Assembly: GCA_907165135.1 (NCBI GenBank)
Contig: OU015568.1
Coordinates: 14,260,001 to 14,324,000, forward strand
Source: Oikopleura dioica
Taxonomy: Eukaryota; Animalia; Chordata
DNA: 64,000 nt
Direction: 5' to 3'
Position numbers and translations under genes: made by a program. This document shows positions 17,864-27,306 of the stretch, in pieces. Below the pieces are notes generated by a model, which saw only the letters and a list, made by a program, of their open reading frames with translations, searched no databases and had not been told where the DNA came from. Positions within the stretch are counted from its first letter, which is position 1. Each line of letters opens with the position of its first letter.

Positions 17864-20782
17864 TTAAAAGTCTATTTTGCGGCGAGAAGTAGATGGAGCG
17901 CCGGAATCGTTGAAATTGCTTGGAGAGCATGGTCGCTTGTTTCGTCGAGCGTCTGGGGTCATCGTGAAGTCTAAAATTGTTACGTTAAATTTACAAATAT
18001 ATCGAGAATTATCTTCGAGTATATGAACCCTGTTGAACTTGAATAATAACCGGAAGTAAGATTCTACACATTAAAATATGCGCGCATATGAAACCATTTC
18101 TCGTGCTATCTTTTCCAGTCAAAGCTGTTTCTTTCGGTTTCAAGCTGACACATGCGAGCTTCCGATCTATTCATACAGGGAGCTATCGTTTAGTCAATAG
18201 TAATAAATTTCGGTCAATATATATAATCCCATGTCTGCCAAAAATATTTCACTGACCATTCAACTAAATCTTCATGACTATTTGATGCATCGGTACCAAA
18301 CGAGAACTAGACGACATCATGACTTACCTTCACTGATGTGATCTTGCTTGATTTTCTCTTCTTTCATTAGACGAGTGAAGATCATCTTCGCTTCGTTCAG
18401 ATACGTCTCAGTTTCAACAAAAAAGCTGAAGAGGGGTTAGAAAAAGATCGGATCCAATTGTTTCACCTGATGCAGTACTCTGACGAAATGTTCATCGTTC
18501 GGAAAAAGCTTTGACCCTTTCCCTCGCTATAGTCGCTGATGCCGTCCTCGTAAATAGGCAAGTACTCAAGGGGATCCTTGTCTTTCATTCCCATGTTAAA
18601 GGTCGGACTGAAGTTTGAGTGAACAATTATTTTTCAAGCAAAACTTACCCTCGGCTAACATGGAAGTGGCCAGGCTGAACTTGCACTTCGGGATGCTCTT
18701 TGATTGCTTCAAGGTTCTGGATCTCCTTGCACATTTTGTTAACCAACGATTCACGCTCGAAGAAGAAGTTTGTTGCCTTGTCTTTCGTCTCAAACTTTGC
18801 TCTTCCGACGCATTGCCAAATTCGCTGCTCGTCGAGATCTTCCATGATCTCCTTGGCGCGCCCAAGTTTGCGAATCACATTATTTCTCTCCTGGAGCTCG
18901 CCTGTTTTAGGATGAGAACTTTGGCTAGAGGTCAATATTAGTAAAGAGCTTTTTACGATATTGTGAAGATTTTAATAAAGATATCTAAGTAATCTTGCGA
19001 AGACGAAGGTGCGCTTATAAAGTTTGTCATTTTATCGGGCAAATCATTCAACTCAAATACATTCAAAAATTGCGAATTGACGTCAAATTGTGTAATACTC
19101 TTTTTACACAATACTTACATTGCCTCGATTCTCTCGTCAGGACTCGATATAGCCGATCTTACGTAAAGCTCCGTAAATTTACAGTAGGCAGTCATATCAA
19201 AGATCGATTCGCACATTGTGTACCAGCGCTTATCAGATCCTTTCTGGCGAAGAGTGTCTTTGACCAAGTCCAAGGCAAGGGCGAGTTGCTGTTCTGCGGC
19301 AAGGGCTTTCTTATGCTGATAGATTTCTCGATGATTTTTGTCCCGTTGGAGGAGAATGTTCCAGCAATCGTCGGCGATTTTCTTGTGGTAACAAAGGAGA
19401 GTTCGGCCGAGATTAGTCTTGCAGTGGTTGATTCTAATGTTGGCGAAGATACGCTCGTACTCAACGTCGAAGTCGTTTCCTTTGCAGATAAGAGTATCCC
19501 GCTTCAGATAGTCCATGCGATCCGTATCAATGCCCCCCTTTTTGTTTGAAACTATCTCGTACAAGAAAGCATGCGATTCAGGACGTCCTTTCATCGGCCA
19601 GGGTGCGTTATCCTTCAGTCCCTTCAAAGGCGTCGGATCAATTAACTCGATCAAGAACTCCAGATCGATGGGTTGCATTCCATACTCTGCCCATTTAGCT
19701 TTCACATCTTCGTTCGTTTCAAAGATGTGTTTCACAATTGCCTTTAATTTCGGTCAATTTGAGCACCTTTTTATTTTGGGTATCCATGCATAACGAATTA
19801 TCTTCAGAAGTTAGTTAAAAATGACCGTTTCCTTGGAAGCATCTTCGTGTGACCAACTGGTTATGATAGAGGAAGGGTCGTAAGGGTGTTGAAGACCGTG
19901 GACTTTTTCGACTTTTCCAGTTTGTGGATTGACTCTTTCGATATCGCGCATGTTCTTCGGGATCATCTCCCCATCCCAAAAATGGCTCCATGGACCGTGA
20001 CCGATATCATGCAGCAATGCAGCGAGCTTATTGAGATTAATAATGTTCTCATAAGATTATTGACTATAATTAACTCGCATATGAGAAGCTATGCGCATTG
20101 TCTTTTTTTGGTAACTGTGTGCGTCAATCTTTGAGCTTTCGAAATCTCGTTCCTGAACGATTAAAAGATCTTTTTCTCGATCAATGTTAGCGTCCTTGAT
20201 CGCATCGGGGTTATTTGCTACAATTTTCTCTAGCATCTTGCGCGTTAGATGATAAGTTCCAAGGGAGTGGATGTATCTATTGCCAGTTGCACAGGGGTAG
20301 ACATAATCTACCGTGCCGAGTTGACTAATGTACTTCATTCTCGCGAATTCTGGGGTCTTGCGAAGAGCGTCGGCCAAGGGATGAAGCTCGATTGTTCCGT
20401 GAACGGAATCCTTGATGGTTGTGGATTTTTGTGACAGGGAGACGTTCAGTTGATTTCGGAGAATAGCTTTCTCGCCAATTTGGAGATGTTTACCGAAAGG
20501 AGACTTCGGATCATCGAGTTCTCGGATAACTTCTTCGCGCGTGTAATCTAAATAACACTTAAATGAATACACATCATAATGAGATTAAAATGGGTACTTG
20601 ATATGATGCTTCTGTTATGAAATGATAAAGAAAATTGATAATTAACTGATACTTACTGTTACTTTTTAGCAGCTCTTTAGTTTTATCACGCAACGAGGTT
20701 GTATCGAGTTTATTCAGCCATGATGTACAATCGTCATTATGATTGAGATCAAGGGGAGCTACATCTTGCTTGTATCTCTTAC
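17864..20782 (-). CDS. SAMHD1: SAMHD1 dNTP triphosphohydrolase, body of the gene (codon 11 to stop), cut off from its start by the retrotransposon
   Basis: SAM-like segment (CTSWLNKL...LLKSNKASYQCYLDYTREEV...QIGEKAIL); IKDSVHGTIELHP; NRYIHSLG; VQLAALLHDIGHGPWSH; WSHEDAS; FLYEIVSNKKGGIDTDRMDYLKRD; HREIYQHK; FNMGMKDKDP; C-terminal TP and RRKIDF*. Hand-spliced exons: 20657-20782 (plus 27279-27306), 20598-20611, 20153-20557, 19832-20026, 19119-19741, 18649-18924, 18467-18607, 18328-18425, 17864-17970. These total 2013 nt, or 670 aa plus stop. Confidence 0.93.
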
Positions 20783-21038
20783 TATTGGGATCTTAGATTC
20801 GTTAGACTCCCTCGTCCCCTAAGGTCACTTGCTTATCTAGATCGAGCTTTGCTCGGTCGCCGCCGTGTATTTCTCTTCATTCGGTAATTCACGCAGTTCG
20901 TGAATTAACCTCTATTTTACTCCAGCTCGAAATACAGACGTCAAAGATACTTTACTCGTTTTCTTCACTCGTCCAGATATAGAGAGCAGGCAAACTACGC
21001 TAGAAGTGGGAGATTCAGCAGAAGCTAGGATCCCTTCA
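20783..21038 (+). repeat. 5' LTR (256 bp, TATTGGGATC...GATCCCTTCA)
   Basis: Identical by eye to 27019-27274; followed after 1 nt by the PBS. Confidence 0.97.
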
Positions 21039-21039
21039 G

Positions 21040-21050
21040 TGGTATCAGAG
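21040..21050 (+). promoter_or_regulatory. Primer-binding site TGGTATCAGAG
   Basis: Starts with TGG, 1 nt after the 5' LTR; matches the tRNA-iMet-type PBS consensus. Confidence 0.85.
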
Positions 21051-21555
21051 TAGTCCCGTTGGAGAAAAGATAAATTTTTCCGCCATCGACAACCGAAGTT
21101 TCGCAACTTGGACGCTGATTGGCCGTCAGCGGAGTCGAGGGGAACCGAATCACCAACCGCCACCGCGCCGCCGGAGAAACTCCACTCAGAGAATTTTCCG
21201 CGCCGCACCACACCAACACCACCCCGAGCGAGCGCCACCACACGAGCGCCACCACGACCCACGCGCCGAAAGTCGCGCCCACGCAACCACGCACGCACGC
21301 CGGGGAAAACCTAAAATACTGAGAAAAACATAATTCTTTCGCCACTTTTCACCAAAAATCGAGAGAAGTTTACGAAGAATCGACCCTTGGACCAGACCTT
21401 GAAATTTCGACAATCGCTGGACAGAGAAATCGTCGGGCGTTTGCGCAAAAAGGCACCTCAGCTCATCATATTGCGACTTTTAGTCGCAGTATTTTCTGAG
21501 GGCCTGAAAGGTAATCCAAGGCCCATAAACCCTTACTGCCGATATATTTCGAGCT

Positions 21556-24500
21556 ATGGCGGCGAACAAATCACTGCTAGAAACCGTCACCGAAATAAGA
21601 AGCATAAACGATCGAGTAAACTACCTCGAAGAACAAGTGCGAAATGACGAATCACTAAAGCCAAGCCTAGAGCCCTTGATCACAGAAAGCAGAGTAAAAT
21701 TAGAACAGCTCAGTACAACGCTTCTTACCTGCGAGCTCGATCAAGGAAAAGACTCTACGAATGCGACAATGAGAGAAGAAGCATGGGTGGCCACTACCTG
21801 GTCTCGTCACGTCCAAGACTTGCCGAAGCTGGACGCCGCATGCAACACATCTTTCAACACCTTCTTGGGCAGAGCCGACATTTATCACCGCGCCTACGTC
21901 CGCGACAGACCTTCACGTGAACAGCCTTTCATCGCAGCAGTGTACAGCCACTTCGACTTGAACATCGAACGCTCACTTGGAACCGAATTTCTGAATTGTC
22001 AAGACTGGAAATCGGCCAAGGCGCTGCTAGAGAAATCATTCGCCGCGAAGAGTCACTACTTACTGAAGCTAAGCGAAGTTTTCGACGTCGAATACGACCA
22101 TTCGAAGCCGTTTGCACACTACACCGCCAACGTCTTGCAAAAGATGAACGAGGCGAAGCAAGCGACTTTGAACTCTTACCGACAAGAGAAGTCAGCCGAC
22201 GCCGGGGTCGATGAAATATTTGACATATTCTCGACGATGATGCTGTACTTGAATCTTAGGAAAGAAGAACCAGACGTTTTCAACGCAATCCTTCCAAGCC
22301 TATCAAAAGTTTACGATATCAACGAACTCTGCCGTCTCGCCCAATCCACAAGACAGAATCGAGTTGACAGCGCGACCGTCTCCCAGCACTTCAACAGAAA
22401 TAAGAACAAAAAGAAGAAGAATGCTAAGCGCGCCAGCAACGATTCTAAGGATGGGAAAGACGATAAACAACCAGAATCCAAGAAGATAAATACGACTAAG
22501 AACGTTGAAGATTTCCAACCATTCGACGTTCACTTTTACACAGTGAAGAAGAAGCGACCAGGAAAGGCTTATTTCGCTTCGGCTACCATCATTACGGGCT
22601 CTAAAAGTTTTGACGTATCGATGGAAGTCGACAGCGGAGCCGAGTCCTCCTGTCTGTCCGCTGCTTACGTTCCCGACGAATTTCTCCAGATGCTGAAGCC
22701 CTGTCCCTTCAAGGTCACCGGTTTCAGCCCAAATATTCCCGCCGAGCAGCCGATGGGTATCCTTCCCTGCCGCTTATCATTCAATGGTGGCCCTGCATTC
22801 TCCCTGAATCTCACCATTATGCCAGGCAGTAAATACCCAAGTCTACTGGGCCGCGATATACTAGAGAATGCGATGACGGACAGCTTCACAGTCGACAATA
22901 AGAATCGTACTCTCTCATTTTGCTACAACGAAGCCTTCACACAAACTGAGACTCAAGTGGTGAAGCTGGACGGAGTGAAGCGGACCAAAATCAAGAAATA
23001 CTTGACTACTAGATCAGCGGTCAAGGATAGCGATCGATCCCGCACTCAACCGCCACCAAAAGTCCCAAAGCTGGACGCACCTAACAAGAACGCAGCCAGG
23101 TGCCCCATTCAGCTAGCGAAGCAAAAACTCGGAATTACCCTACCAGCAAACGCCGACCCGGGGCAAAAGAAGGTGGTCGCCGAGCTGTGTTTGGAATTCG
23201 ACGACAGATTCGGCTGCGACGGTCAAAAAATGGGTGAATTCCCGTTCGAGATCGAAATCCCGACTGATGGTACGAGTCGAAACATCAGTCAACACCCGAT
23301 TCCGCAAGCTTTTCATGGTCAGGTCAGCGATCACATCTCCGAACTGCTCGAAACGAAAATAATAGAAGAGATCAAAGACCAGAAAGGGTTTAACAGCCCG
23401 GTATTGCCTATTCCTAAGAAATCTGGGGAAATGCGCTTCTGCATCAACTACAAAAACAGCCTGAACAAATGCCTCTCCGACAAATCCGACCCTTACCATC
23501 TCCCAAGCATGGAGGATACGATTGCGAACATTGGACCGGGCAATAAGTTTTTCGCCACAGTTGATCTACGAAGTGGATATTGGCAGTGCCCTGTAAAGAA
23601 AAGCGACAGGTACAAGACTTCCTTCCAGTGGGGTGGGAAATCTTACGCCTTCTGCAGACTACCATTCGGTTATCGATGCTCGGGGAATATATTCTCGCGC
23701 GTCGTAAACACAATTCTCGACTCAAGCCCCACCAGGAAAAAGATGCTTTCTTATATCGATGACATAGTGTGTTTTGGGAAGACTTTCAGCTGCTATTACA
23801 ACACTCTCCGAAACCTATTCATCGCGCTCCGCAAGTTTAACGCTAAACTCAAGGGCGAAAAGTGCTCTTTCCTACAATCCGAAGCTCACTTTTTGGGCCG
23901 AATCATCAACGAAGATGGAATCAAACCGGACCCTGCGCAAGTCTCCGCTCTTCGTCAGATGAAACCCCCACGCTCCCAAAAGGAGTTAGCTTCATTAATC
24001 GGGTCATTGAATTGGATCCGAGGTTTTCTAGAAACGAAAATGGGCGAAGCTATTTCATCCGGTTGCTTCTCGAGCAGAATGAAGCCCATAAACGATGTTC
24101 GAAATTCGGCGAACGAAACAAATTGTTTCAAGTGGACCAAAGAAGCGGATTTGGCGCTCAAGGAAATTCAACGACGACTCTCCGAGACTCCAGTCATAAG
24201 TTTTCCTAACTTTGACGAGTCTTTTCATCTCTACACAGACGCGAGCCTGTACGCAGCGGGTGGCGTCCTGCTACAAGAGTATGGCGGGAGAGTGCACCTA
24301 GTAAGCGCGATTTCCCACACCTTCAACAAAGCTGAAAGAAAATGGAACACTTCAGAAAAGGAAATGTTTAGCATTGTCTGGTGCTGCGAGCGACTGGAAA
24401 AGCTCCTGAAAGGTAGATTCTTTCAGATTCACACAGACCACCGATCTTTGATCTTCCTACACAAAAAGAAGTTCAAGAATTCTAAAATAAGCCGATGGCA

Positions 24501-24870
24501 AAGCCGATTGGAAGAATTCGATTTTCACATTGTCTACATCAAGGGATCAGAAAATCAATTCGCCGACTTTATGAGCCGCAGACCTGGCGAGGACGACAAA
24601 TCACTTGGATACGACTCTGAGTTTCCCGTTGGTCGCGAGTACGAAATCGACAAGAATTCACCAGTACGTGTCTTCGTCCCTTTCTGGAACGAAAATCAGT
24701 TTCCGGAGAAAATCACTTTATCAGAGGTGAAGATACATAAGGTAAACGTCAAGGCTATCGCGGCGCCAATGGAGATTCCGTTGGTGTCAGCGAATTATAA
24801 TAACATTCTGGACTATCAAAGGGAGGACTCTGCTCTGAGTGCAATCATCACTTTTCTGGAATCTGGTTAG
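21556..24870 (+). CDS. Gag-protease-RT-RNase H polyprotein, ends at TAG
   Basis: Protease VDSGAESS; RT VDLRSGYWQ, LPFG, YIDD; RNase H YTDAS, EKEM, HTDHRSL, ADFMSR. No CCHC knuckle seen in Gag. Confidence 0.95.
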   Translation: MAANKSLLETVTEIRSINDRVNYLEEQVRNDESLKPSLEPLITESRVKLEQLSTTLLTCELDQGKDSTNATMREEAWVATTWSRHVQDLPKLDAACNTSFNTFLGRADIYHRAYVRDRPSREQPFIAAVYSHFDLNIERSLGTEFLNCQDWKSAKALLEKSFAAKSHYLLKLSEVFDVEYDHSKPFAHYTANVLQKMNEAKQATLNSYRQEKSADAGVDEIFDIFSTMMLYLNLRKEEPDVFNAILPSLSKVYDINELCRLAQSTRQNRVDSATVSQHFNRNKNKKKKNAKRASNDSKDGKDDKQPESKKINTTKNVEDFQPFDVHFYTVKKKRPGKAYFASATIITGSKSFDVSMEVDSGAESSCLSAAYVPDEFLQMLKPCPFKVTGFSPNIPAEQPMGILPCRLSFNGGPAFSLNLTIMPGSKYPSLLGRDILENAMTDSFTVDNKNRTLSFCYNEAFTQTETQVVKLDGVKRTKIKKYLTTRSAVKDSDRSRTQPPPKVPKLDAPNKNAARCPIQLAKQKLGITLPANADPGQKKVVAELCLEFDDRFGCDGQKMGEFPFEIEIPTDGTSRNISQHPIPQAFHGQVSDHISELLETKIIEEIKDQKGFNSPVLPIPKKSGEMRFCINYKNSLNKCLSDKSDPYHLPSMEDTIANIGPGNKFFATVDLRSGYWQCPVKKSDRYKTSFQWGGKSYAFCRLPFGYRCSGNIFSRVVNTILDSSPTRKKMLSYIDDIVCFGKTFSCYYNTLRNLFIALRKFNAKLKGEKCSFLQSEAHFLGRIINEDGIKPDPAQVSALRQMKPPRSQKELASLIGSLNWIRGFLETKMGEAISSGCFSSRMKPINDVRNSANETNCFKWTKEADLALKEIQRRLSETPVISFPNFDESFHLYTDASLYAAGGVLLQEYGGRVHLVSAISHTFNKAERKWNTSEKEMFSIVWCCERLEKLLKGRFFQIHTDHRSLIFLHKKKFKNSKISRWQSRLEEFDFHIVYIKGSENQFADFMSRRPGEDDKSLGYDSEFPVGREYEIDKNSPVRVFVPFWNENQFPEKITLSEVKIHKVNVKAIAAPMEIPLVSANYNNILDYQREDSALSAIITFLESG

Positions 24871-26709
24871 GAGCCACTGGACATAAAATCGCTGGTGAAG
24901 GACTCCGACCACCGACAATCGTCTCTACTCAAGATGGAAAAAGCTCTGTTCCTGGATAACACTACCGGGTGCTTGATGTGTCAATTCAAATCTGGCGCGC
25001 GGGCGGTGGTACCGGAAGCGGTAAAAAGTCACTTTCTCTTTCTAGCTCACGACTTGTCCGGTCATCTGGGCGAGCCGCGGACTTTAGAGCGATTAGAGGA
25101 CGTTTGGTGGCCTTCATTTCAAGACGATGTTTCTAACTACGTCCACAGCTGCGTCCCTTGCCTACGCAGAAAAGGATCTGCTGGAACTCGTACCAAACCG
25201 CCACTTGGAACCCTTCGTCGTGGAAAAACAGCTGGCGAATCGATTCAGATCGATTTCGCTTGTATGCCTCCCGCTGGCGGATTCAAGTATTATTTGGTGG
25301 TGGCGGACACTTTCTCTCGCTACACTTGGTGCATTCCGACGCGGTCCGACACTGCTATCTGCGCTGCAAAAGCGCTCATCTACAAGGTCTTCCTTCCCAT
25401 GGATTTCTTGCCGAAACATCTACACAGTGACAGAGGTACCCACTTCTGCGCAAGCGTGATTGACGAAATGTGTAAGCTTAACCAGATAAAACATACAATA
25501 AGTACCGCATTTCACCCTCAATCAAACGCTTTCGCAGAAAGAGCGAATCGGACTATCAAAAACAGTCTATTCTGCATGGTCAACTCATCTTCCGGTCGAA
25601 AAACTTGGGCCGACTGCGTTCCCCACGTGATGCGCGCGCTCAATAGTGTGAAAAACAAAAGCACGAAAATTTCACCGCGAGAAGTTTGGTTTGGCCGAAA
25701 AAGTACTTTCACCCACTCTACTGGCGCAGAAATGACAGCGGAAACACCTCAGGTGTTTGGTCTCAATGTGGGAGCTTTAGCGAAATCGGCGGAAGCCATT
25801 GTGAAAACTGCGATGGAAGCTGCTGACCGAGCCATGGAGCACAGGCTGAAAAACGAGCCTAAGCCGAGACCAATCCCCGCTGGCGCTGTCGTGTACATTA
25901 AGCGAGAAAACCTGACCGACGCTAAAAGCAAGAAGGAACGCTGGGTAGGTCCCCTGAAAGCCGTTTCGAGCAACGACTGGGTCGTCATGGTCGAAGATAA
26001 AAAAGGACAACGTGATTTCATCCATCGAGAACACGTGGTTCACGCCGCAGAACGAAATCACGACTTACGCTGGATTGATTACTACGAGGCCGAGTACGTA
26101 TTCCCACATTTAACCGAAATCGTTAAGTCGAAAGTCCCACAAAAATCGCCTGTTCCTACTTCCAAACCGATGGAAAAGTCCGGGTCGAAGTCGCATGGGG
26201 GGAGGAAATCTTCTCAGGTCGCGTCGACTCCGATGGTTGCTATGGAAAAACCGCCAAGATCATCTCTATCACCTATTTTGGAAAGTAGACGCCGATTGGA
26301 CATGGAAAATCTGGGAGATACAACCGCTACATCTATTTTGGACTCGTCGGTAGCTCCAGCCGAGCCGTCAGATCGCTGGTACTCTGGTGGTACTCTTTAT
26401 GAAACTGCCGAGGACATGTCAGCTGATGCTACAGTGATTTCGGAGGTTGCTGCGCCCGACAATAGCCATATGTCAGTCGATAAACATAATTCAACAGTAG
26501 TTGAGGGCTCAGCAACTGAAAACAGCAAGAAAAGAACCCGTCCAAAGTCTTCACCAGATCGTCAATACTCAGCCGGCGCCGATCCGAATGCGACTTTAAC
26601 CGAAGTTGGAGCAGCTCATCTCCCGAAACATACAAAACGAGCACACCGTGAAACGAGGCCCGTCGAACCTCTAAACATCGGCACAAACTCGGGTCAGTCA
26701 TACGACTAA
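24871..26709 (+). CDS. Integrase, same frame as the upstream ORF, directly after the TAG
   Basis: HHCC (AHDLSGH...CVPC); D,D(35)E (QIDF, SDRGTHF, AERANRT); GPY/F-like WVGPL; long Ser/Thr-rich tail with no chromodomain. Confidence 0.93.
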   Translation, partial: EPLDIKSLVKDSDHRQSSLLKMEKALFLDNTTGCLMCQFKSGARAVVPEAVKSHFLFLAHDLSGHLGEPRTLERLEDVWWPSFQDDVSNYVHSCVPCLRRKGSAGTRTKPPLGTLRRGKTAGESIQIDFACMPPAGGFKYYLVVADTFSRYTWCIPTRSDTAICAAKALIYKVFLPMDFLPKHLHSDRGTHFCASVIDEMCKLNQIKHTISTAFHPQSNAFAERANRTIKNSLFCMVNSSSGRKTWADCVPHVMRALNSVKNKSTKISPREVWFGRKSTFTHSTGAEMTAETPQVFGLNVGALAKSAEAIVKTAMEAADRAMEHRLKNEPKPRPIPAGAVVYIKRENLTDAKSKKERWVGPLKAVSSNDWVVMVEDKKGQRDFIHREHVVHAAERNHDLRWIDYYEAEYVFPHLTEIVKSKVPQKSPVPTSKPMEKSGSKSHGGRKSSQVASTPMVAMEKPPRSSLSPILESRRRLDMENLGDTTATSILDSSVAPAEPSDRWYSGGTLYETAEDMSADATVISEVAAPDNSHMSVDKHNSTVVEGSATENSKKRTRPKSSPDRQYSAGADPNATLTEVGAAHLPKHTKRAHRETRPVEPLNIGTNSGQSYD

Positions 26710-27012
26710 GCGCAAGTACTGCCCCACTCAGGTCCCCTATTCATCGACCGGGGCCTGAAAAGGTACGGAAATTATCACAGTTTACCGTCGCCGACGTATT
26801 TTGAGTTCTTCTACATGTGCAGCTACTCCTTCATGTCATCACCGCTCGGACATCACGAAAACTTCGCATCTGATTCAAGCTTTTTCCCAAAAAAGGGTTT
26901 TTTAACGCGAATCAGACTGCCTCGACGTTTCGAACCTGCCATGTTACTCATCTTACGCTTATACTCCTGCAAAAATCACACACTTTGGCCTTAGAGGACG
27001 TTTCAGTCTCAT

Positions 27013-27018
27013 GGGGGG
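27013..27018 (+). promoter_or_regulatory. Polypurine tract (G6) abutting the 3' LTR
   Basis: ATGGGGGG immediately precedes TATTGGG. Confidence 0.75.
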
Positions 27019-27274
27019 TATTGGGATCTTAGATTCGTTAGACTCCCTCGTCCCCTAAGGTCACTTGCTTATCTAGATCGAGCTTTGCTCGGTCGCCGCC
27101 GTGTATTTCTCTTCATTCGGTAATTCACGCAGTTCGTGAATTAACCTCTATTTTACTCCAGCTCGAAATACAGACGTCAAAGATACTTTACTCGTTTTCT
27201 TCACTCGTCCAGATATAGAGAGCAGGCAAACTACGCTAGAAGTGGGAGATTCAGCAGAAGCTAGGATCCCTTCA
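27019..27274 (+). repeat. 3' LTR (256 bp)
   Basis: Identical by eye to the 5' LTR; followed by the TSD TTAC. Confidence 0.97.
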
Positions 27275-27306
27275 TTACTCTCTGCAATATCTCCGGTTAG
27301 TTTCAT
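27275..27306 (-). CDS. SAMHD1: 5' fragment of SAMHD1 (ATG and first ten codons, MKLTGDIAES), left on the far side of the insertion
   Basis: First ATG after the pyrimidine tract/TTTTAG acceptor near 27420. It joins the 20782 flank in frame once one TTAC copy is removed. Confidence 0.8.

Follow-up and report, generated by a model that had tools for sequence, protein, structure and literature searches.

A recent Ty3/gypsy retrotransposon insertion in coding exon 1 of a SAMHD1-like gene of Oikopleura dioica

The element, its insertion site and the host gene

The window analyzed here is a 64,000-nucleotide stretch of contig OU015568.1 of Oikopleura dioica, a planktonic tunicate. It was found that a 6,492-nt element on the plus strand (20783-27274) lies inside coding exon 1 of a SAMHD1-like gene on the minus strand, antisense to its host. 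The two LTRs are identical and 256 nt each (20783-21038 and 27019-27274), with TA...CA ends. The first-pass annotation had placed an LTR element between TTAC duplications, which is borne out by the identical LTRs, the exact ends and the 4-nt duplication at 20779-20782 and 27275-27278; when lengths of 3-8 were compared, only 4 matched. On the gene strand, the second copy reads GTAA and, together with LTR bases, forms a GTAATG donor whose phase is that of intron 1. The insertion is genuine and very recent.

A primer-binding-site-like sequence (21040-21050) lies one base past the 5′ LTR, and a polypurine-tract-like run (27011-27018) abuts the 3′ LTR. The gag-protease-RT-RNase H frame (21556-24870, plus strand) encodes 1,104 amino acids, with a DSG motif at residue 359 and YIDD at 733. 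It is followed in the same frame by the integrase (24871-26709), which has an H2C2 zinc finger and an rve core. The order of the Pfam domains in pol (RVT_1, RT_RNaseH, Integrase_H2C2, and rve) is that of Ty3/gypsy elements, as are the direct LTRs, the duplication within the 4-6 bp range, and the primer-binding site and polypurine tract, the last two being candidates by position. No env ORF of the kind expected for Tor3/Tor4 was found; the 3′ LTR follows 309 nt after the stop codon of the integrase frame. Judged from its sequence, the element is an env-less Ty3/gypsy LTR retrotransposon. An exact look-up of its reading frames gave no match, and neither did a search for the priming tRNA of the primer-binding site in the tables of the PMC13524379 supplements. 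An in-frame stop codon at 24868-24870, between RNase H and integrase, had been overlooked in the first-pass annotation; pol is not intact as it would be in an autonomous copy.

Compared with the published description of the Tor elements of O. dioica (PMC4402516), the element shares the Ty3/gypsy domain order, near-identical LTRs, a 4-bp target-site duplication and an empty allele alongside, and some Tor members likewise lack env. The copy differs in the stop ahead of the integrase and in its TA...CA ends.

The host gene was modeled with eight exons on the minus strand. The 5′ part of exon 1 (27279-27306) holds the start codon (27306), comprising the first 9 codons and 1 nt, while the 3′ part (20657-20782, 42 codons) starts a predicted five-helix SAM-like domain. 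Exon 2 (20153-20547) carries the end of this domain, an altered AL1 motif and the R164/H167 equivalents. Exon 3 (19832-20026) carries the H-D motif and has a GA-AG intron on either side; exon 4 (19119-19741) covers D311/Y315/D319 and the R366-H376 region. Exons 5 (18649-18924), 6 (18467-18607) and 7 (18328-18425) lead to exon 8 (17864-17970), with a T-P motif that we take to resemble human T592, basic C-terminal clusters and the stop codon. The introns are 41-357 nt long, and four of the five modeled GT donors are GTAAGT. A 670-aa SAM plus HD protein had been announced; the HD part stands, while the length becomes 662 aa in a model that depends on the two non-canonical GA-AG introns, and the SAM part is suggested at a score below the cut-off.

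With the element in place, the host frame reads 10 host residues and 42 LTR-encoded residues and stops in the 3′ LTR after 52 residues (27150-27148, minus strand), as translation across the junction confirms. When the element is taken out in silico, the open frame is regained up to the intron donor at 20656. Both points agree with the earlier reading. The NLS-like motif noted there at the cut fares less well, since KRYK sits in a stretch of about 10 residues missing from the orthologues. Likewise, the statement that no in-frame ATG precedes the HD domain on the downstream side needs amending: the first in-frame methionine downstream, M122 (ATG at 20338), lies in the HD N-lobe, ahead of all metal ligands.

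Is the insertion site truly coding? No ATG other than that at 27306 occurs between the gene and the putative acceptors (27419-27398). The 3′ part of exon 1 is identical to P0182 at 21 of 38 residues (E 6e-15), and its codon log-odds are +7.3 in the reading frame versus -47.7 and -22.3 in the others. The orthologues begin with MK/MR-x-G at the same place, behind the same upstream gene, and the syntenic loci L002 and L003 share the position of intron 1, their exon 3 being continuous with exon 2. An intronic or UTR location was thus rejected on the protein conservation behind the site, the codon log-odds, and the start and intron 1 shared with the orthologues. The public ab initio model P0154 joins the gene to the low-complexity gene upstream. 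This fusion was also rejected, because P0154 omits the H-D exon and because, in L001-L003, the upstream gene ends some 90-100 nt ahead of the ATG.

A SAMHD1-family protein with a replaced AL1 triad

The HD domain has the equivalents of H167, H206, D207, D311, and R164 and belongs to the SAMHD1 family. In total, 21 of the 28 mapped positions equal human SAMHD1, among them every metal ligand and catalytic residue that was checked. The O. dioica protein CBY11194.1 (P0192) is 72% identical to the host protein (468/646 columns), and the predicted model of this orthologue matches human SAMHD1 with a Foldseek E of 3e-27 and a TM of 0.83 by target. No second named O. dioica protein was found among 20 hits looked up, 150 of the 1,120 hits being listed. 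P0192 and the syntenic L001-L003 have the same upstream gene and an altered AL1; unlike the present gene, they carry no element at this position, lack intron 2 and are shorter by about 10 residues at the N-terminus.

The likeness to human SAMHD1 (PDB 7ujn, 4tnq, and others) comprises the HD fold over about 540 columns of the orthologue model, the catalytic residues, a helical N-terminal domain at the SAM position and the C-terminal T-P motif. In contrast, identity is only about 25%, K116, N119, F165, and R372 differ, the N-terminal NLS is not conserved, and the SAM score stays under the threshold. For the SAM domain, Pfam SAM_2 reached 11.7 bits (E 0.3) in P0192 against a cut-off of 20.5, and no Pfam SAM domain was found in P0187, P0189, or P0001. 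Five helices are predicted for the N-terminal SAM-like region, which had no match in Foldseek or the Atlas.

The AL1 triad, D137-Q142-R145 in human SAMHD1, is K/A/K here, N/C/K in P0192, and M/G/R in P0001, while it is D/Q/R in 83 of the 114 homologues covering it. The replacement of this allosteric, guanine-sensing triad extends to all Oikopleura-type proteins, which form a clade on a branch of 1.59 in a quick tree (48 of 56 candidate rows, those aligning over 280 residues or fewer being removed; the distant HD proteins L004 and L005 were left out). C. elegans ZK177.8 and the SAMHD1 of the fungus Rhizophagus irregularis are also non-vertebrate SAMHD1-family dNTPases, but they keep the DxxxxQxxR motif. 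Oikopleura presents a SAMHD1 lineage that has replaced GTP-sensing residues retained in organisms as far apart as fungi and humans. It is known that D137A abolishes the anti-L1 activity of human SAMHD1 (PMC5872582). On the other hand, the R. irregularis enzyme, acting as a monomer, still hydrolyzes dNTPs when its AL1 is mutated (PMC12042053), and so the altered triad is no proof of lost restriction. For the host protein, the prediction is an active HD dNTPase that is no longer GTP-switched in the human manner; its role is probably dNTP housekeeping and not that of a dedicated brake on the LTR family.

Empty and filled alleles and the depth of the family

The first-pass annotation had proposed looking for an empty allele in other O. 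dioica reads. The empty form (joint 20778 to 27275, with 6,496 nt skipped) is present in all four DNA runs compared (X1-X4). Its contigs are unbroken in X1, X2, and X4, with 49, 255, and 255 letters, respectively, on the short side. The left junction of the insertion was seen in run X3 as a 56-nt contig (20754-20809) with zero differences, whose 29 flank and 27 LTR letters fall slightly short of the 31/31 bridging rule for junction contigs; X3 may be the source data. In X3, the depth is 7.8 at the junction, 9.5 for the empty allele, and 13 in the flank, and the flank contig ends at position 20783, exactly where the two alleles diverge. Among the contig pieces listed from the DNA runs, none showed the right junction. 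The filled allele coexists with an intact empty allele in X3. X1 and X2 are not proven insertion-free, because contigs can lose rare variants.

The ratio of element to flank contig depth is 28x in X1, 55x in X2, and 1.1x in X4, which comes from another study, and LTR-bin depth is 59x in X3 and 59-83x in X5; contig depth cannot be read directly as copy number, as it could be raised by free cDNA, the pooling of animals, sex-linked copies, or biased amplification. The main element contigs of X1 and X2 differ from this copy at 0-1 positions over 389-656 nt. The family seems to have been amplified tens of times over in one group of samples. The flank depth of 28-55x in two runs contrasts with the few insertions per animal reported for three elements tested by Henriet et al. 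(2015, PMC4402516). Rare hemizygous Tor insertions, each in <5% of animals and with homozygotes not found, are already described in that study.

Fate of the filled allele and the feedback question

The insertion probably inactivates the allele, since translation of transcripts from the filled allele would terminate within the LTR, 52 codons from the start. Over 20380-20830, the RNA runs X8 and X13 gave 0 records. The probable null allele of the first-pass annotation holds as far as this frame is concerned, but it had overlooked an in-phase splice donor at the junction that could skip the element. If the GTAATG donor (27278) were joined to the exon-2 acceptor (20548), the element and 42 codons would be removed in frame, and the product, open for a predicted 620 aa, would keep the full HD domain and lose most of the SAM-like domain, being a hypomorph and not a null. 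AATAAA is absent from the element on the gene strand, which also favors such readthrough. However, the intron would span 6.7 kb versus the 41-357 nt of the gene's own introns and would contain 13 acceptor-like sites and 9 GTAAG donors. Furthermore, GTAAGT is the rule among the modeled GT donors, and the empty allele, which offers the better GTAAGA at the same spot, evidently does not use it as its main donor, given that the sequence following it is conserved at the protein level. A leaky allele is rather unlikely. A non-heritable insertion, whether somatic, mosaic, present in just a fraction of a pooled sample, or a chimera that arose in the library or the assembly, is very unlikely. Although the left junction alone was seen, in one run and below the bridging rule, while the empty contig of X3 is unbroken through the right side and X5, from the same sample, has no coverage of 20748-20779, integration, unlike chimera formation, leaves just such a precise 4-nt duplication and exact LTR ends. 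In addition, junction depth is near that of the empty allele, and the flank contig breaks off precisely where the two alleles branch.

It had been speculated that the element disabled a factor restraining its own family, a host-transposon feedback. According to this idea, the gene limits Tor reverse transcription via low dNTPs, and the loss of one copy raises dNTPs in the germline or embryo so that the family spreads faster. The match of the catalytic and metal positions and of the orthologue model to human SAMHD1, the restriction of the LTR elements IAP and MusD by human SAMHD1 T592A, and the apparent amplification of the family in samples of the same study as the allele speak for it. Nevertheless, the feedback is unsupported and must be considered highly improbable. 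X1 and X2 combine high family depth with unbroken empty contigs, so that the apparent burst seems not to need the filled allele; the intact allele is mixed with the filled one, and the AL1 triad is lost. The integrase of this copy sits behind a stop, and any benefit would be common to all family members, with no special gain for this copy. Restriction through dNTPs is best documented in non-dividing cells, whereas Oikopleura embryos and gonads proliferate fast. A more elaborate version, in which a live burst of an env-less Tor-like family (about 30-55x versus about 1 elsewhere) is fed because one copy halves the dose of a GTP-independent, always-on SAMHD1 and germline dNTPs rise, is an equally long shot. 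No paper tying SAMHD1 to Oikopleura retroelements was found in a literature search. A demonstrated feedback would rank among the rare natural examples in which a transposon knocks out a non-piRNA defense against itself, a retroelement caught in the act of removing its own brake in a chordate with a 6-day generation.

I consider it likely that a new env-less Ty3/gypsy copy, landing antisense in coding exon 1 beside an intact allele, inactivates its allele as a chance casualty of an apparently multiplying family. The insertion is likely an ordinary insertional mutation in an eye-catching gene and not the switch that released the family. With tens of fresh, unpurged copies per genome, some would fall in exons, and the intact allele would supply the enzyme. 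The chance of hitting at least one of an assumed 40 defense-type genes is 4-8% per genome, while that of hitting this exact 2-kb coding sequence is only 0.1-0.2%; with tens of new copies per genome, it is not unlikely that some defense-type gene is hit. Selection would likely remove the filled allele, as reported for Tor insertions generally. The possible 30-55-fold growth of one LTR family, in a species known for rare transposons, and the altered GTP site are better leads than the insertion allele itself.

Most likely, the filled allele is a natural variant of an ordinary kind, though a useful one. Provided that the line still lives, crosses of carriers may yield animals null for a SAMHD1-family gene in a fast-breeding chordate. 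Such animals would directly test whether SAMHD1 of an invertebrate holds endogenous LTR elements in check or is simply an essential gene, the latter being suggested by the maternal sterility that follows knockdown of the worm gene.

Structure of the insertion and its effect on the host frame

It was found that a Ty3/gypsy LTR retrotransposon (20783-27274, + strand) lies antisense in the SAMHD1-like gene, flanked on each side by TTAC, a 4-nt duplication, as the first-pass annotation had described. Both LTRs are 256 nt long and do not differ from each other when compared within the window. Downstream of the 5′ LTR, at a distance of 1 base, is a PBS-like sequence; the 3′ LTR is directly preceded by a purine run. 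Gag, protease, RT and RNase H form one frame of 1,104 amino acids. The integrase follows in the same frame after a stop codon (24868-24870, + strand), leaving only 309 nt up to the 3′ LTR; thus, the element has no env. This stop codon, which coexists with identical LTRs, may have arisen recently by mutation, may be an error of assembly, or may serve as a site of read-through.

Is the insertion site exonic? Judging by homology, it is; two RNA runs, X8 and X13, yielded no records there. The 42 codons behind the site share 55% identity with a related protein, P0182 (E 6e-15). In three syntenic loci of other lineages without the element (of five loci fetched), the same upstream gene is followed by a stop and then by the same type of start, and in two of them (L002 and L003) intron 1 has the same position as in the host gene. 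The site would be neither intronic nor in a UTR, the case that the first-pass annotation had set against its own reading.

The predicted disruption of the frame was reproduced exactly: from the ATG at 27306 (- strand), 10 host residues are read before the frame enters the LTR, where it meets a stop at 27150-27148. Residue 122, in the N-lobe of the HD domain, is the next Met in frame. On the strand of the gene the duplication reads GTAA, and these bases, together with the LTR, create a GTAATG donor in the phase of intron 1. If this donor were spliced to the exon-2 acceptor, with which it is in phase, an open 620-aa product including the whole HD domain could be made, and the allele would be leaky; however, the intron would be 6.7 kb long and 13 acceptor-like sites would compete. 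Given this possible bypass of the element, the allele is likely, but not certainly, null.

The upstream gene and the host gene are arranged head to tail, 207 nt apart (27514-27306), and acceptor-like sites occur between them at 27419-27398. The two genes likely share an operon whose transcripts are trans-spliced. Next on the same strand (17137-13786) come MIF4G and adaptin-N (coatomer-beta-like) genes, and thus the insertion may have polar effects.

Empty and occupied alleles in DNA reads

A search for the empty allele in other reads, proposed in the first pass, was successful: the form that is 6,496 nt shorter was found near flank depth in all four DNA runs across the region (at most four samples from two studies). 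In run X3, possibly the source data, a 56-nt contig, slightly short of the bridging rule, matches the left junction without difference at a depth of 7.8; the empty allele has a depth of 9.5 in this run and the flank one of 13. Run X5 has no coverage of the site. No right junction was seen among the contig pieces listed from the DNA runs. On this picture the allele is very young and either heterozygous or mixed. Similarly, Tor elements are reported to be hemizygous, in <5% of animals and with no homozygotes (Henriet et al. 2015, PMC4402516).

The empty-allele contig of X3 differs from the window by 1 base at 27293 (codon 5) and thus represents another haplotype than the insertion carrier. Runs X1-X3 also have an alternative intron-4 haplotype (18985-19101), in which 115 nt are swapped for 150 others.

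The host protein and its GTP-sensing site

Downstream of the element, the exons show similarity to human SAMHD1 (E 3e-13 and 3e-23). Of the 670-aa SAM plus HD protein claimed earlier, the HD family membership stands by homology, while the empty-allele model gives 662 aa and seven introns, two with GA-AG borders (20152-20027 and 19831-19742, - strand). The first of these is absent in L002 and L003 and was thus gained or lost in a lineage-specific way. The putative SAM domain is suggested by five predicted helices and a Pfam SAM_2 match below threshold; fold searches gave no match to this region. The NLS-like motif said to be cut falls in about 10 residues absent from the orthologues.

The protein shares 72% identity with its O. 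dioica orthologue CBY11194.1 (P0192), 54% with P0001, a full-length relative, and 27% with a SAMHD1-like protein from a frog. Over its long ungapped stretches, a public O. dioica gene model is ~99-100% identical to the window frames, which establishes the species. The AlphaFold model of P0192 (mean pLDDT 83.9) matches SAMHD1 structures (E 3e-27, TM 0.83 by target). In a quick tree, the Oikopleura-type proteins form a long branch, and their one-to-one orthology with vertebrate SAMHD1 is putative. Paralogues may exist in O. dioica (150 of 1,120 matches were listed). A public ab initio model (P0154; 1,648 aa; 32819-17867), labelled pseudo-autosomal, joins exon 2 to the low-complexity gene upstream, passing over the element and losing the H-D motif exon. 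Thus, the lesion is invisible in public annotation.

Residues identical to human SAMHD1 occupy 21 of 28 mapped positions, including R164, H167, H206, D207 and D311. The seven differing positions are allosteric sites. Among them is the guanine-sensing triad D137/Q142/R145 (described in PMC10485159 and PMC12042053). It is kept in 83 of the 114 homologues covering it (131 aligned). It is replaced by K/A/K in the host protein (residues 115-123, window 20375-20352), N/C/K in P0192 and M/G/R in P0001. Unlike human SAMHD1, all Oikopleura-type proteins seen have lost this AL1 triad (N/V/K also occurs), while the catalytic residues are common to both; the sequences predict that regulation differs. In human cells, anti-L1 activity is lost with D137A, whereas IAP and MusD, two LTR elements, are restricted by T592A (PMC5872582). 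A fungal SAMHD1 with mutated AL1 is active as a monomer (PMC12042053); by this analogy, the enzyme of Oikopleura may be a dNTPase without regulation, not a dead one.

Apparent expansion of the element family

The depth of element contigs relative to the flank is 28x in X1, 55x in X2 and 1.1x in X4 (another study), and LTR bins reach 59x in X3 and 59-83x in X5 (same sample) with two LTRs per element; contig depth is not copy number, and contributions from free cDNA, from the pooling of animals or from copies linked to sex are possible. The main element contigs of X1 and X2 show 0-1 differences from the window copy across 389-656 nt. A recent transposition burst in one line is possible.

It had been proposed that the element disabled a factor that could restrain its own family. 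The burst is seemingly independent of the insertion allele, because the family is deep in X1 and X2 yet their contigs cross the site unbroken and empty, although rare variants may drop from contigs and this falls short of proof. Such host-transposon feedback is not supported and appears very improbable. For a genome of 64 Mb (PMC8008620) carrying 28-55 copies, the chance of a hit on the host coding sequence is 0.1-0.2%, and on any of an assumed 40 defence-type genes 4-8% per genome, before allowing for the many windows scanned. I consider a chance, probably loss-of-function, heterozygous hit by an apparently expanding family to be the rather probable explanation.

Polymorphic Tor-type insertions are a known class, and this one happened to strike a gene whose human relative is famous. 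No report of the allele or the burst was found in the literature listings searched; a search for Oikopleura with SAMHD1 returned only an autoimmunity review, and PMC11067885 and PMC13524379 served as background. The value lies mainly in a possible burst, in the alteration of the GTP site and in the use of the allele as a natural knockout.

One X4 element contig (22700-24314) has 48 differences in 1,615 nt, versus 0-3 in the other listed X4 contigs, and is possibly recombinant. X4 contains more distant relatives of the element as well.
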